Positions 1 to 6,108 of a DNA stretch of 64,000 nt are shown one piece after another. A program made the position numbers and the translations under genes. The stretch is from NCBI GenBank assembly GCA_963719515.1, contig CAVRCJ010000016.1:1-64000 (forward strand), given 5' to 3'. The stretch's first letter is position 1, and each line of letters begins with the position of its first letter. Origin of the DNA: an uncultured cyanobacterium. GTDB taxonomy: Bacteria; Cyanobacteriota; Cyanobacteriia; CAKZMO01. Under the pieces are notes generated by a model that saw nothing but the letters and a program-made list of their open reading frames with translations, was not told the origin of the DNA and ran no database searches.

Positions 1-40
1 AGCCAAGCCATGTTAGCTACTAGACAGGAAGCCCCGCGCT

Positions 41-223
41 CTACCCGTCAGGGTGAGCGTCGGGATGAGAGTCGCGGTCGTCGATGGGGCTCAATGCCCC
101 GGAGACGGCCAAACTTCGGATGTACTCCCTAAGGACATCGTTGATAGTTCTTTCGGTCATCTCACAATACTTGTCAAGATGCTGCTTTTCTCTGTCAGCG
201 GCTCTAATAGTTATTTGCTGCAT
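41..223 (-). CDS. Small ribbon-helix-helix (CopG-like) protein inside the IS
   Basis: MQQITIRAADREKQHLDKYCEMTERTINDVLREYIRSL has a beta-alpha-alpha pattern; divergent from tnpB where tnpA usually sits. Confidence 0.65.
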   Translation of the reverse strand: MQQITIRAADREKQHLDKYCEMTERTINDVLREYIRSLAVSGALSPIDDRDSHPDAHPDG

Positions 224-256
224 GTCGTTCTGATGTCAATATGCTATCATTATTGC

Positions 257-1453
257 ATGAAAGTCACCCATCAGTACAGGTTACGCCCAACGGCTGAGCA
301 AACGGTTACCATGACCCGATGGCTAGATATGCTTCGGGCACAGTACAACTGGTTGCTGGCTGAGCGCTTCGACTGGTGGGAGATGAACCGCTGTTCGGTC
401 AACGCCTGCCCACTCACCTGTAGCCTTGCGCCACTCAAAGATAATCCTAATTACTACAGCCAGAAGGCTAGCCTAGTACCTCTCAAGCGAGAGCGACCCT
501 GGTACAAAGATTTGCACTCACAAGCGCTTCAGGAGGTGACGAAGCAGGTAAAGCAGACGTTCGAGCGTTTCATCAAAGGTGATAAAAACGGTAAGCGTAG
601 CGGCAAGCCTCGGTTCAAAGGCGCGGGGCGCTACAGGACGTTCACGTTCCCGCAGATGAAACCTGACTGCATCGATGGAAGTCGTATTACCCTGCCTAAG
701 ATTGGCCAGGTGAAGCTAATCCTTCATCGCCCGATACCTGATGGGTTTACTGTCAAAACGGCCAAGGTGACTCGCAAAGCAGATGGTTGGTATGTGAGCC
801 TGTTACTGGAAAACAATGCCGTTCCGATGCTTACTCCGGATGTCGATAGGGCTAAGTCTGTCGGTGTTGATGTTGGGCTGAAGGATTTCTTGGTTACCAG
901 TGACGGTGAGAGCGTTCCTATCCCTCAGTTCTTTCGACGCTCAGAGCGGCAGCTATCCAAGCTGCAGCGGCAGCTATCGAGACAGAAGAAGGGCTCTAAC
1001 CGCTGGCGTAAGCAGGTGAATCGCATCGCCAAACTACACCTAAAGATATCGCGTCAGCGTCGTGATTTCTTTTCTAAGGTGTGGGATTGGCTGTTCTCAA
1101 AGTACGATGTTGTCGCTCATGAAAAGCTCAACATCAAAGGACTTGCTCGAACCAGACTGGCAAAGTCAATCGCTGATGCCGCATGGGGTACATTCTTGGA
1201 GATAGGCTCTTTCAAAGCCGCGAAAGCTGGAAAGATGACCATCGCTGAGAACCCACGCGGAACCAGCATTGATTGCTCGGGTTGTGGTGAGCGGGTACCA
1301 AAGACGCTGGCCGATCGGGTCCATAGTTGCCCGTCATGCGGCTTAACGATCTGTCGCGACCACAACGCGGCTATCAACCTATTGAATAGGGCTGTGGGAC
1401 ATCAAGCCCTTAATCTCTCAGGAAATGTCTCAGCGGTAGCTGGGAGTCACTGA
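257..1453 (+). CDS. tnpB: RNA-guided endonuclease TnpB
   Basis: N-terminal MKVTHQYRLRPT HTH, RuvC-I GVDVGLK, RuvC-II AHEKLNI, zinc finger CSGC..CPSC, RuvC-III RDHNAAINL. Start set at ATG 257, just after TGcTATCAT. Confidence 0.95.
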   Translation: MKVTHQYRLRPTAEQTVTMTRWLDMLRAQYNWLLAERFDWWEMNRCSVNACPLTCSLAPLKDNPNYYSQKASLVPLKRERPWYKDLHSQALQEVTKQVKQTFERFIKGDKNGKRSGKPRFKGAGRYRTFTFPQMKPDCIDGSRITLPKIGQVKLILHRPIPDGFTVKTAKVTRKADGWYVSLLLENNAVPMLTPDVDRAKSVGVDVGLKDFLVTSDGESVPIPQFFRRSERQLSKLQRQLSRQKKGSNRWRKQVNRIAKLHLKISRQRRDFFSKVWDWLFSKYDVVAHEKLNIKGLARTRLAKSIADAAWGTFLEIGSFKAAKAGKMTIAENPRGTSIDCSGCGERVPKTLADRVHSCPSCGLTICRDHNAAINLLNRAVGHQALNLSGNVSAVAGSH

Positions 1454-1499
1454 GGAAGCCCGCGCTGTATGCGTAGCATCAGCGTCGGGAGGATGTCAC

Positions 1500-2041
1500 C
1501 AACCGCCGCCAGGGCAAACTGGCTCCAAGCATCCGGGCCAACCGGCAGCTTAAATTACGGGTGGCGAAAGAGCTAGCCGCTATCCTGCCCATCTCCGTTT
1601 GTCAGCCACGAATCGTTCCGAACTAAAAACACTCACGGCAAAGTCTGGACCGGCAGCGTTGCTATCACCGATTGCCTGTTTAAGATCATTCGTCGTCCGC
1701 CTATCTGCCGCCGCCAACTTCACCTACTGCAGCCCGCCAAGGGTGGGAAGCGTCGCGCCTACGGCGGCACCGTCACCCGGCATGGCTATCGGAAGGGCGA
1801 CATGGTCCATGCGGTTCACGCTGGCCGTGAGTGCATCGGGTGGGTGTCTGGCGATACCGCTCGGCAAGTGTCTGTTTCCGATATCAATTGGAAACGAATA
1901 GCGCAGTTTGCCGCTTCAAAAGTGCGGCTGATTAAGCGCAGTACTGGGCTGCTGATTTCGGGGGCATCGTTGGCGCAGCCTGCGCACAGCACACACCCCA
2001 CTCAGTCAGCCCTCCTATCCCTCCCTAATCCGCTTCGCTGA
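1500..2041 (+). pseudogene. IsrB/IscB-like (RRXRR family) OMEGA protein remnant, interrupted by the tnpB element and internally deleted
   Basis: Bases 1-16 plus 1500 onward read SNRRQGKLAPSIRANRQLKLRVAKELAAILPIS. After a frame jump near 1597: IRRPPICRRQLHLLQPAKGGKRRAYGGTVTRHGYRKGD..IGWVSGDTARQVSVSDINWKRI, typical of cyanobacterial RRXRR proteins. Downstream hairpin CCCTAATC/GATTAGGG (2023-2049) and ATGA (2066-2069) resemble an element end. Confidence 0.75.
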
Positions 2042-2072
2042 GATTAGGGTATCCCCGAGAAAAAGATGAACC

Positions 2073-2114
2073 GCTGGAGGAAGAGAGCCGCTTGAGAAAG
2101 CCTCTTCCTCCAGC
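2073..2114 (-). terminator. Stem-loop downstream of msrA
   Basis: GCTGGAGGAAGAG ... CTCTTCCTCCAGC inverted repeat just past the msrA stop. Confidence 0.5.
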
Positions 2115-2138
2115 CCCATTCTGTTGGTAGCGACCAGC

Positions 2139-2801
2139 TTAACCGTGCTCAACCGCCAGTCCTACCGGGCAAGCGACCCCAGTTCCCCCCAATCCACAGT
2201 ATCCGCCTGGATTTTTTGCGAGATACTGCTGGTGGTAATCTTCAGCAAAATAAAACTCAGGAGCCTCCAAAATTTCAGTCGTGATGCCGCCATGACCTGC
2301 TGCATTCAGCTGCTCTTGGTAGGCCGCCTTGGACGTCTCGGCAAGCTGACGCTGCTCGTCTGAATAAGTGTAGATGCCTGAGCGGTACTGAGTTCCTGTA
2401 TCATTGCCCTGACGCATGCCTTGGGTCGGATTGTGGCTTTCCCAAAAGACTTTGAGCAATTCAGCGTAGCTGATAACGCCGGGGTCAAAGACGACGAGCA
2501 CCACTTCGTTGTGGCCCGTTGCCCCGGAGCAGACTTCCCGGTACGTCGGATTAGGCGTATAGCCTGCCGCATAGCCTACTGCAGTGGTGTAGACGCCCTC
2601 TTGCTGCCAAAAGCAGCGCTCTGCGCCCCAGAAGCAGCCTAGCCCAAACACCGCCGTCTCCATGCCGTCGGGATAGGGAGGCTTTAGGGGTTTTCCATTC
2701 ACAAAGTGCTTATCTGGCACGGGCATTGCTGCTTCGCGTCCGGGGAGCGCTTTTTCTGGAGTGGGCATTTCCGCTTTTTTCCCGAGTCCAAAGAGTGCCA
2801 T
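2139..2801 (-). CDS. msrA: Peptide-methionine (S)-S-oxide reductase
   Basis: GCFWGAE active site, AEDYHQQYL motif. Confidence 0.97.
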
Positions 2802-2892
2802 TTAAAGTGTTCCTGCTAAATTGAACGTCTGTATTCCGTACGGTGCTGTCGAACCATTGTCCCTATTTTAAAGGGCTGTCGTTTCTACCACA

Positions 2893-3341
2893 GTGACATA
2901 CTCCCGACGCTCATCTTTTAGATGGAGCGCGGGCTTCTTGGCTCACGCACCACAATTTAATGGATGCCGCGCAAGAAGGTTTCCTGCTTCATCTGGTCCT
3001 GTCTAGTTACGCAGCAAGCCGTGCAACCCCGATTAGATCCCATCGACAGGCGATTTGTTTAATGTCCAGGCAATGACCAACCCCAGACAGTGACGAGTAT
3101 TCAATTTCCAGCTACGTTTTCTACCGTCTGCACTGTTCACCAGCCAAGGGCTGTACGTTTGTGTCAGGATAGCAGGCCGCCGCCACGAAATAGTTTGAGC
3201 TTGGTTCAATTGTACCCTTTGCTCGCCTCGGCGCTGCCCTTAATTGCCGCCTTCGGCATCCAGTCAAGGGCGCACCTCGACTCGCTCGCTTACATCCCGA
3301 CGCTGATGCTGCGCATACAGCGCGGGGCTTTCACGAACTAG
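2893..3341 (-). mobile_element. Non-autonomous IS605-type element (449 bp, type 2)
   Basis: Minus strand: TTAG target (3342-3345), AAGC-CCCGCGCT..AGCGTCGGG left hairpin, GAAG-CCCGCGCT..AGCGTCGGG..TCAC right end. No credible ORF; internal TACAAT (3209-3214). Confidence 0.85.
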
Positions 3342-3463
3342 CTAAAAGTTTGTGGCGGATATCTGTTATCAATCGTTAGGAAAACCCTACCGATCGCCTT
3401 GTTAAGGGCGTTCTAGGTTGAGAGCGTTCTAGAATGTTGCGTCTGCTAATCCAGCCTACCGCC

Positions 3464-5635
3464 TCACACCGTCGCCCGCTCGCCATTGCTGGCGTGGGGC
3501 GTCAAGGCATCGGCAGACTTCCACGTAAAGGAAAACGTGGCCCCAGCGCCGACGTCAGACTCAACCCAAATCTTTCCCCCCTCCGCCCGCACGAGCCGCT
3601 TCACGATGGCCAGCCCAATGCCGGTGCTGACCACCGTACCCGTCTCTAGCACGGTAGACTGATTCGACTGCAGGGTTTCGAAGACGCCGAAGATTTTGGC
3701 CTGGTCGGCAGGGGCAATCCCTGGCCCTTTGTCGGCGATCGCAAACCGGTAGCCGTCGAGCTGCTCCCAGGCTGAAATCGTAATTTCGCCCTGCCCCTTC
3801 ACGCAGCCGTATTTGATGGCATTGCTGATCAGATTGGCAAACACCTGGCTGAGCATCACCCGCCTCACCTGAAAAGTCGGCAGCTTCGTGGCGACTCGAA
3901 TTACGATGCCGGGGGGTACCGTCAAGATACTGACCACCTCCCGCACTAGTTCAGCTACGTCAACGCGCTCAGGGGGCTGCTTCACCCGTCCGGCCCGGGA
4001 ATAGTCCAGCAGGTCGTTGATTAACGTCTCCATCAGGGTGACCCGGTTTCCCAACAGCCTGAGCTGATTTTGGTTATCGGGTGGGATGATGTCACCGAGG
4101 TCTTCCTGCAGCCATTGAGATAAATTGTGAATACCGCGTAGGGGAGCCTTGAGGTCATGGGAGACGACATAGGCAAATTGATTGAGGTCTTTGTTTCTTT
4201 GATCGAGATCTGCTGTGATGGTCTTGAGGACGTGATTGAGCCGGGTCAGCTCTTGCGCCCGGTATGCCAGAGCTTCCTCGACCCGCTTCCGCTCGGTGAC
4301 GTTGAGGGTGATGCCCGTCATGCGAGTAGGGTGCCCCCCGCTGCTGTAAAGGGTCTGGCCGATAACCGTCAGCCAGCGGATACCGCCGGTTGGATGCAAG
4401 ATCCGAAATTCGACGTTGAGTCCGACTCTTTTTTCTAGAGCGTTGAAAATGGCCTGGTTGACGCGAACGCGATCGGGCTTCAAGACGGAAGCCAGCCAGC
4501 TCTCATAGGAAAGAATTTCTGAGGCGTCAAGGCCGTGAAGCCGGTAGCACTCTTCTGACCAGGTAATTGTATTGTTGAGCAGGTTCCAGTCCCAAAGGCC
4601 TGCGCCTGCGGCCCGCTGAGCGAGGCGCAGGCGCTCTTCGCTCTCTCTCAGTTCAGCTTCAACGCGACCCCGTTCAGCGATTTCCGTTTGCGCCTGCCGG
4701 TAGAGCTCTGCCTGCTGGAGCGCAATGCCAACTTGAGTCGCGATATCTTGAAGCAGCTCAACTTCCAAAGGCTTCCACTGCCGGGGGGCTGCGCAGTGAT
4801 GAACAATCAGCATTCCCCACAAATCGCCTTTTTGTAGAATGGGCACCACCAGGTTGGCCTGCACCTGCAGTTTGTCTAGCAGCTCAACGTGGCAGGCATC
4901 TAAATTGCCGTCATGGATGTCAGAGCGAAGGACAGCCTGTCCTTGGCGAAAGGGTTCTACGTGGCTTTCTTCCAGGCAGGGGTCGTAAAAATCATGCGTT
5001 AGCGTTGCGAGCCATCCATCACCCGCAGATTCAGTGACTACTGTCCCTTCTCCGTTGGGATGGAGGCGAAACAGCAGGACGCGGTCGGTCTGCAAGAACT
5101 GACGAACCTCGGTGACGGTAGTCTGCAAAAGGCTCTCTAGATCCAGAGTTTGATGAATCTTGCGGGTGATTTCTGAAACCAGCTGCTCGCGCTCGATTCG
5201 CTGCTGCAGCTGGGCGCGGAGCTGCACCGTTGAAATGGCGCTATCAACCGCTACATGCAGCCCCTCTGCGGTAATTCTGCCCTTGACGAGGTAGTCTTGC
5301 GCCCCCGCCTTCATGGCCTTAACCGCGATCGCCTCGTTGCCTTGCCCCGTCACCATAATCACCGGAAAGGCGGGGCTTTGCGGTGAGCAAAAGTAAGGCT
5401 GCTGTGGCAAACATTCTAGGCGGGCCAAAAACTCTAGCCCATCGAAATCGGGGAGGCAATAGTCCAACAAAATCACGTCCGGGTGGTGCTGCTGCCACAG
5501 CTCTAGACCTTGCTCCCCCATTGTTGCCTCAATCAGCACGTAGTCGTGATCGGGGTCGCGCTCCAGGTACCTTCGGTAGAGTTCTCTATCTTCCGGAGAA
5601 TCGTCGACGACAAGTACAGTGCGTGGTAAAGACAT
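3464..5635 (-). CDS. Hybrid sensor kinase REC-GAF-PAS-HisKA-HATPase
   Basis: VLVVDD/ILLD receiver, GAF with DPC and CH residues (cyanobacteriochrome-like), PAS WDW, SHDLKAPL H-box, G boxes. Confidence 0.9.
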   Translation of the reverse strand: MSLPRTVLVVDDSPEDRELYRRYLERDPDHDYVLIEATMGEQGLELWQQHHPDVILLDYCLPDFDGLEFLARLECLPQQPYFCSPQSPAFPVIMVTGQGNEAIAVKAMKAGAQDYLVKGRITAEGLHVAVDSAISTVQLRAQLQQRIEREQLVSEITRKIHQTLDLESLLQTTVTEVRQFLQTDRVLLFRLHPNGEGTVVTESAGDGWLATLTHDFYDPCLEESHVEPFRQGQAVLRSDIHDGNLDACHVELLDKLQVQANLVVPILQKGDLWGMLIVHHCAAPRQWKPLEVELLQDIATQVGIALQQAELYRQAQTEIAERGRVEAELRESEERLRLAQRAAGAGLWDWNLLNNTITWSEECYRLHGLDASEILSYESWLASVLKPDRVRVNQAIFNALEKRVGLNVEFRILHPTGGIRWLTVIGQTLYSSGGHPTRMTGITLNVTERKRVEEALAYRAQELTRLNHVLKTITADLDQRNKDLNQFAYVVSHDLKAPLRGIHNLSQWLQEDLGDIIPPDNQNQLRLLGNRVTLMETLINDLLDYSRAGRVKQPPERVDVAELVREVVSILTVPPGIVIRVATKLPTFQVRRVMLSQVFANLISNAIKYGCVKGQGEITISAWEQLDGYRFAIADKGPGIAPADQAKIFGVFETLQSNQSTVLETGTVVSTGIGLAIVKRLVRAEGGKIWVESDVGAGATFSFTWKSADALTPHASNGERATV

Positions 5636-5637
5636 GA

Positions 5638-6108
5638 CTAATCCTGGACGAGACTGGGAAGCGTCGTAACCCCAAACCAATAATGCACCAGCGTTTGGAT
5701 ATCCTGCTTCAGCTGCGCAAAGTCGATGGGCTTGATGATGTAGCTGTTGACGCCATACCGGTAGCAGTCCTCTACATCTTTGGGGTTGTTGGAGGTCGTA
5801 AACACCACAACGGGGATGGTTTTGAGCGCCTCATCCTGCTTGATCTGGTGCAGCACCTGTCTGCCGTCAGTTCGAGGGAGATTGAGATCAAGCATAATCA
5901 TACCGGGGCGGGGAGCGCTGCTCTCCCGGTAAACCCCGGTATGGTAGAGAAATTCTAGGGCTTCTTCTCCGTTGACGCACCGAAAGATGGGGACAGCGAT
6001 CGCAGACCTACGCAGCAGACGGCAGACCGTTTCAAAGTCCTCGTTGCTGTCTTCTACAATCAACATTGGGGCCGTCACCTTGGGGGGCAACGCTAACGTA
6101 GAGCTCAT
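5638..6108 (-). CDS. rcpB: Phytochrome-associated single-domain response regulator (Rcp type)
   Basis: LIVEDS..MLDLNLP..VNSYIIKP..YWF; ATGA overlap with the phytochrome stop. Confidence 0.85.
   Translation of the reverse strand: MSSTLALPPKVTAPMLIVEDSNEDFETVCRLLRRSAIAVPIFRCVNGEEALEFLYHTGVYRESSAPRPGMIMLDLNLPRTDGRQVLHQIKQDEALKTIPVVVFTTSNNPKDVEDCYRYGVNSYIIKPIDFAQLKQDIQTLVHYWFGVTTLPSLVQD

Follow-up and report, generated by a model that had tools for sequence, protein, structure and literature searches.

Background

Reportedly, Altae-Tran et al. described IsrB in 2021 as an HNH-less relative of IscB with an omega RNA encoded upstream (Rfam family HEARO, RF02033). Elements that carry tnpB alone and are accompanied by short hairpin-ended derivatives are known as IS1341-type. 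The locus considered here brings these two kinds of transposon together. It lies at the very start of contig C16 (71,637 nucleotides, nt; GenBank CAVRCJ010000016.1) in the assembly of an uncultured cyanobacterium (GCA_963719515.1, below G000; 5.28 Mb in 21 contigs), and the first 64 kb of this contig are the stretch that we analysed and refer to as the window. Positions 13-1499 of the window are one copy of a young multi-copy element of the IS200/IS605 family, with tnpB and without tnpA. In our opinion this copy probably represents an ordinary nested insertion in the wreck of the only IsrB of the assembly, with a guide that has no target, two insertions and a recombination between them being the likeliest history.

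The best described systems for comparison are ISDra2 and the IS608-type elements. For ISDra2 it is established that the guide of TnpB is the 16 nt that follow the right end of the element, and that its transposon-associated motif (TAM) is the target of TnpA (Karvelis et al. 2021, PMC8612924); a homing role has also been ascribed to TnpB (Meers et al. 2023, PMC10055086; 10.1101/2023.11.20.567912). The window element is similar in that its TnpB has RuvC and zinc-finger motifs, its ends have subterminal hairpins, it is inserted 3' of a short motif without duplication and, by analogy, its right end would be directly followed by a presumptive guide. It differs in the motif, which is (T)TTAG and not TTGAT or TTAC, and in the lack of tnpA, whose place is held by a doubtful 60-aa open reading frame (ORF); tnpA is found in three sister copies only, where it is divergent from tnpB. 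The non-autonomous copies of the family far outnumber the autonomous ones, as in IS1341-type elements, and we saw no difference of kind from the latter. The window element belongs to a known family, and a guide that equals the flank is how every TnpB element works. Judging by the titles and opening lines of abstracts that our literature search listed, there was no paper on a TnpB element nested in IsrB.

The TnpB element and its copies

At the DNA level, window 1-2100 has 61 matches in the genome. Of the loci outside the window's own, fourteen correspond to 13-1499, to within a few bases, with 98-100% identity, which makes 15 full-length copies with that of the window. Further copies are three that match 258-1499 only, one split over the starts of contigs C1 and C17, one on C13 that is slightly rearranged internally, and another at the far end of C16 that is interrupted by other insertion sequences. 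Near-identical copies with tnpB thus number about 20, and short derivatives about 50.

The ends of the element are sharply defined by these copies. When the terminal 30-mer of the left end is located throughout the genome with up to 3 mismatches, TTAG stands directly 5' of 70 out of 70 left ends, and position -5 is T in 60 of the 69 that have a full 10-nt flank. Right-end 30-mers found with the same tolerance (n = 23) terminate in GTCAC; the sequences beyond them are unrelated and do not repeat TTAG. This is the trait of the IS200/IS605 family: insertion 3' of a fixed short motif, with neither target duplication nor terminal inverted repeats. An earlier note on this DNA had placed the boundaries at 17 and 1499, and the copies elsewhere together with the 70 left and 23 right ends confirm both to the base. 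DNA folding predicts hairpins at both ends, the z-scores of these short stretches being weak (-1.4 and -1.2).

The short derivatives are about 400 nt long (for example C10:479347-479745) and retain 13-84 and 1416-1499, with some 247 nt of different sequence in between. There are more of them than of copies with tnpB, and the same form, with the joint 76->1416 and 247 letters between, is seen in metagenome contigs (Logan contigs from four sediment metagenomes of one study, compared with window 1-3000). Two copies, C9:14566-16052 and C10:705518-707004, have both flanks in common (40 nt per side, with one difference), hence a larger segment containing the element was duplicated.

The tnpB gene itself is intact. 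Its product matches NCBIfam NF040570 (guided_TnpB) with 299 bits; PF01385 (OrfB_IS605), PF07282 (TNB) and PF12323 (HTH) are found in it, and the ISDra2 TnpB structures 8bf8, 8exa and 8h1j match it at E 3.8e-44. In alignment with a TnpB-like nuclease of solved structure, the motifs GVDVG, AHE and RDHNAA coincide with its D, E and D; the protein also has two CxxC pairs, and the 398-codon frame is kept in 14 of the 16 fully aligned tnpB copies. A Y1 (HUH) tnpA is absent from the window's copy, which is thus non-autonomous. The genome has 14 Y1_Tnp matches, three of which (C10:313500, C1:305130 and C5:98556) have on one side a diverged left end (85-87% identity over 13-103) and on the other a tnpB with 97-99% identity to that of the window. 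Given these three sister copies, the family does have autonomous members able to move others.

By this account the element would move by single-strand peel-and-paste with Y1 TnpA supplied by the three autonomous sisters, and would land 3' of (T)TTAG. If the rule of ISDra2 applies, TnpB would load an RNA consisting of the tnpB 3' end and the right end and ending in about 16 nt of flank, and the complex would cut TTAG followed by that flank, that is, the element's own emptied site, where repair would put the element back. There is no Rfam family for the predicted scaffold of this RNA; the two matches that window 1-6000 has in Rfam at E<=1, to toga_FSE and Transposase-1, are both sub-threshold.

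The host is a dead IsrB element

Immediately to the right of the element, window 1501-1623 matches the RRXRR profile PF14239 at positions 116-150 (26.5 bits, cut-off 25). The DNA further on, 1577-2038, is read in a frame other than that of this first piece and matches 640 longer proteins at E<=0.01. The best 120 of these 640 are 282-409 aa in length and contain PF14239 only; the top match (P0001) has E 4.4e-61 and 76% identity. The relatives of this second piece are HNH-less RRXRR proteins of cyanobacteria, of 360-400 aa. When P0001 is compared with the window by tblastn, residues 245-376 fall on 1592-1984 (100 of 132 identical) and residues ~126-161 on 1501-1605.

Between the two pieces something has been lost. 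Relative to the isrB gene of a same-genus genome (L035), about 262 nt are absent and the frame changes, and residues ~161-244 of P0001 have no counterpart. The joint can be located quite precisely, as positions 122-132 of the blastn query (window 1586-1596) align both to L035 480-470 and to L035 218-207. The N-terminal 125 codons of isrB were not found anywhere in the assembly by searches with PF14239 and P0001. As judged from its sequence, this isrB copy is a pseudogene with none of the three RuvC motifs, owing to the loss of ~262 nt of its centre and the frameshift. The earlier note was right that the host copy lacks its central RuvC-II/III region. A variant contig in metagenome X1 stops near 1584, adjoining the deletion junction, and might derive from a strain in which isrB has not suffered the deletion.

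We assign the host to the IsrB type because its relatives are RRXRR-only proteins with a HEARO-like RNA upstream. Indeed, all four relatives scanned have RRXRR only at E<=0.01 (in the relic the region where HNH would sit is deleted), and at the loci of three of the four a HEARO-like RNA is located just upstream of isrB (E 2e-7 to 2e-5, below the gathering score). The relic resembles IsrB in that both of its pieces find their matches among RRXRR-only proteins of 360-400 aa, whose genes have such an RNA upstream, the left flank of the TnpB element being a piece of this RNA. Unlike a proper IsrB, it is dead: the N-terminus with RuvC-I is missing, RuvC-II/III are missing, the frame is shifted and only 12-31 nt of the omega RNA are left. 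The claim that a TnpB element stands next to TTAG and is nested in an IsrB-type element is therefore borne out by the copy ends, the RRXRR match and the C-terminal homology.

The 3' end of the host element seems to be preserved. Window ~1995-2062 (68 nt) has 75% identity with what follows isrB at locus L033, and ~2012-2059 (48 nt) has 77% identity with the corresponding DNA at L038; metagenome contigs break at 2015 and 2049, near the hairpin that probably marks this end. As an aside, some database IsrB proteins (P0003, P0038) begin with an extra 17-18 residues (MFDSV...), which come from translation of the omega RNA's 3' end (L033 1443-1500), the true start being a later Met, Ile or Leu codon.

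Two junctions in different parts of the host

On the left side only 16 nt of C16 precede the element (a 12-nt flank and TTAG), thus the finding touches the contig end. More of the same flank is seen at the other end of the contig: in reverse complement, its last 35 nt contain a 31-nt flank and TTAG, followed by the left end of an element, and the final 12 nt of this flank are window 1-12. The 31-nt flank matches L033 1423-1448 in 26 of 27 positions, 52-78 nt upstream of the isrB start, and it aligns to the omega-RNA 3' segment, about 70 nt ahead of the start codon, in all four relatives, of which G022 carries TTAG natively at the same place. In the window genome only these 12 nt (31 nt at the other contig end) of the omega RNA's 3' part were seen. 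We also tried to read the left flank as isrB codons 121-125 and rejected this: about 10 of 15 positions agree, with a gap, as opposed to 26 of 27 for the omega RNA.

The right flank begins exactly after the TTCAG of the relatives' F-S codons. The codons that precede this point in the relatives read ...CGN TTC AG|C AAC..., and the 12-nt left flank does not fit them. The left junction is in the omega RNA and the right one at isrB codon ~126, and in L033 these two sites are ~424 nt apart. Excision of 17-1499 would consequently not restore the gene; all that is gained by rejoining the flanks is a serine codon spanning the junction. The earlier note had held that removal of the element rejoins the flanks into a single RRXRR frame. 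This was not confirmed, as the left flank belongs to the omega-RNA 3' region, not to isrB coding sequence, and ~424 nt of host are missing between the flanks; the RRXRR/IsrB profile match is that of the right flank (PF14239, 26.5 bits).

Neither the metagenomes nor other genomes add to the left side. The exact 17-mer made of the left flank and TTAG occurs at 46 metagenome-contig and 31 genome-contig loci, and none of the 77 resembles window 1-2100, the omega-RNA/isrB region of L033 or P0001; these are chance matches. In the metagenome contigs the TnpB element is deep and the unique flank shallow. Among those listed, none runs across position 1 or across 1499/1500, and there is no joint in which 17-1499 is left out, which speaks neither for nor against an empty site.

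The TnpB copy at the far end of C16 (66,091-71,618, minus strand), inverted with respect to that of the window, thus has the same omega-RNA left flank. The two copies differ at 17 positions, including element position 18 (T or G). The right flank of the far-end copy is the 3' end of a DUF429 gene; the right flanks of the two copies are unrelated, and neither is the native continuation of the omega RNA. Inside the far-end copy lies a 4-kb nest of DDE-type transposase ORFs (C16:66771-70788, or L032 6771-10788). Its target duplication measures 10 bp, at element positions 821-830, and its inverted ends begin CAGGGTAAGCGCAAGAAA.

With regard to the shared flank, either it is present twice, or the contig ends are due to a repeat that the assembly did not resolve or to a population that is mixed. 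If it is present twice, the two copies could have arisen by two hits at one site, by duplication, or by past homing between sister IsrB elements. The other possibility would mean that the left junction is an artefact of assembly or of a mixed population, 16 nt having been joined through a repeat, for instance by a flip-flop inversion between the inverted copies at the two ends of C16. Both ends of C16 do exit through a left end into the same flank, for 12 and 31 nt, and this is not the only place where contigs give out at the element: the end of C6 and the starts of C1 and C17 lie within it or a few bases beyond (C17 and C1 start in one and the same copy, broken at 295/296), while the end of C3 and the start of C13 converge upon a single 145-nt sequence. 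We compared the contig-end overlaps, which gave no clue to the assembly method. However, at element position 18, 2 nt in from the end, one junction has T and the other G, which simple inversion by a crossover within the element cannot yield, and both flanks of the window's copy are of IsrB kind, which a random mis-join would not explain. Hence we regard an artefact as unlikely.

We prefer the history of two insertions and a recombination. The left junction would mark a native TTAG in the omega RNA's 3' part, and the right one the place where close relatives read TTCAG, which a synonymous TTT codon would turn into TTTAG. Two members of the TnpB family would have inserted in the same IsrB element, one per TTAG-like site, and recombination between the two direct copies would then have removed one of them together with ~424 nt of host, namely the end of the omega RNA and codons 1-125.

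Several points weigh against our reading of the locus as a whole. The left junction could be an effect of assembly, since the contig itself begins just left of the element and a different copy has this flank too. The TTCAG of the relatives at the right site is one mismatch away from TTAG, and by our own arithmetic ~5% of random deletion end-points would fit equally well, so that the two-insertion history is no more than suggestive. Both the TAM TTAG and cleavage by TnpB are predictions made from sequence and by analogy. Finally, the smallest contig in the assembly is 25.9 kb, so the absence of another IsrB applies to the assembly alone, and small contigs with such a copy may have been dropped.

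The predicted guide and its target

The idea that attracted attention to this locus in the earlier note was that TnpB is programmed against isrB. By the ISDra2 rule, the predicted guide does consist of the isrB codons for NRRQGK, so that part of the claim holds; the part that gave it importance does not, as the guide would be without consequence here for want of a target. The guide spells isrB because isrB adjoins the right end. Since the guide of every TnpB element is its own right flank, the window copy is not specially programmed.

We searched the assembly for what such a guide could act upon. Among 15 candidates for RRXRR (PF14239) there is one match, the window's own fragment; full-length P0001 finds only the window's own two pieces; and none of 23 candidates for the HEARO RNA is a match. 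TTAG followed by 20 nt of the right flank has no other site even if 4 of the 24 positions may differ, and with up to 2 mismatches there is none either for the 20-mer by itself or for TTAG with a 12-nt seed. TTAG with 16 nt finds one site at 3 mismatches, which is unrelated. As far as these searches can tell, the predicted guide would have nothing to cut in this assembly. The earlier note made its idea depend on sister IsrB copies with TTAG and the target, and itself named their absence as a refutation; the assembly has none.

In full, the idea is that TnpB would cleave other IsrB elements where TTAG is followed by the target, and that homology-directed repair would then carry the TnpB element into them, so that one RNA-guided transposon parasitises another. 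It would agree with the location of the predicted guide in a conserved arginine-rich stretch of isrB coding sequence, and past homing between sister IsrB elements could also produce two TnpB copies of different subtypes at the same omega-RNA TTAG. Yet the assembly offers no other RRXRR gene, HEARO RNA or TAM with target, and at the homologous site of the same-genus relative the motif is TCAG and not TTAG, with 2 mismatches in the 16 nt of the target. The pattern of the left junction does not occur in the 16 further genomes of the family, and that of the right junction has one match with 2 mismatches, in G012, a genome without a P0001 match at E<=1e-5. Moreover, homing should leave both flanks shared, whereas the two copies with a common left flank have right flanks that are unrelated and non-native. 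In our opinion the chance that this idea applies here is very small. A related reading, in which the omega-RNA TTAG is a recurrent landing site and the locus carries the trace of guide-directed homing into a sister IsrB that was later scrambled by recombination, we hold to be just as improbable. If it were true, this would be a first natural case of one OMEGA (obligate mobile element-guided activity) transposon spreading at another's expense.

Coordinates and neighbouring features

Table 1. Features of the TnpB element and of its IsrB-type host (window coordinates).
Feature	Position	Strand	Basis
Left flank, fragment of the IsrB omega RNA 3' part (HEARO-type), at contig start	1..12	+	Identical to the end of the 31-nt flank at the other C16 end
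TTAG, TnpA target and predicted TnpB TAM	13..16	+	Precedes 70/70 left ends; native at the same omega-RNA position in relative G022
tnpA-less TnpB element, IS200/IS605 family	17..1499	+	Copies elsewhere in the genome with differing flanks on both sides
Left-end subterminal imperfect hairpin	33..64	+	DNA fold; stem resembles that of the right-end hairpin
60-aa ORF weakly resembling ribbon-helix-helix proteins, doubtful gene	41..223	-	Place held by tnpA in autonomous sisters
tnpB, 398 codons and stop, intact	257..1456	+	NF040570; OrfB_IS605, TNB and HTH domains; ISDra2 TnpB structure matches
Predicted omega RNA (right-end RNA) scaffold, tnpB 3' end and right end	1330..1499 (5' limit approximate)	+	Analogy with ISDra2; RNA fold z -2.78
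Right-end subterminal hairpin	1459..1490	+	DNA fold
Predicted 16-nt guide, isrB codons ~126-131	1500..1515	+	ISDra2 position rule; RRXRR frame
isrB relic piece 1, arginine-rich bridge-helix region, runs into a stop	1500..1623	+	PF14239; 82% nt identity over 99 nt to same-genus isrB
Junction of ~262-nt internal deletion, imperfect 11-nt direct repeat, frame +1	1586..1596	+	Overlap of the two blastn alignments with L035
isrB relic piece 2, C-terminal domain to stop	1592..2041	+	Homology to P0001
Hairpin at the IsrB element 3' end, probable right end	2023..2049	+	Conserved with relatives

Of the minor features in Table 1, the 60-aa ORF, situated in the left part of the tnpA-less copies, is of doubtful status. 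Its likeness to antitoxin-like families (DUF6290, E 0.0036; RHH_1, E 0.022) is below the cut-off in both cases, and its homologues amount to three protein clusters, one of them 88% identical and from other sources, while for the other two no public source is given, which by the convention of the database stands for the window's own genome. The ORF may encode a small regulator, or may not be a gene.

Beyond the host, the adjoining gene (window 2139-2801, minus strand) encodes a peptide methionine sulfoxide reductase of the ordinary kind (PMSR, 210 bits). It is followed at 2893-3346 (minus strand) by a 454-nt hairpin-ended derivative of a second family of IS200/IS605 type, with the right end GAGCGTCGGGAGTATGTCAC. 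About 15 other copies of this derivative are present in the genome at 98-99% identity, and metagenome depth is high from 2893 on. The weak Rfam Transposase-1 match is at 2822-2909 (20.5 bits, as compared with a gathering score of 42.8).

Implications

This genome is crowded with insertion sequences, and a nested insertion as such is of little consequence. The locus may rather serve as a worked example of how a frame that seems "rejoined" at a contig edge can mislead. If the omega-RNA flank shared by the two copies is real and came from homing, it would testify to a conflict between two kinds of RNA-guided transposons. For the TnpB family itself, the 70 left ends give (T)TTAG as the natural reading of the TAM, and many of its copies encode an intact TnpB of 398 aa.

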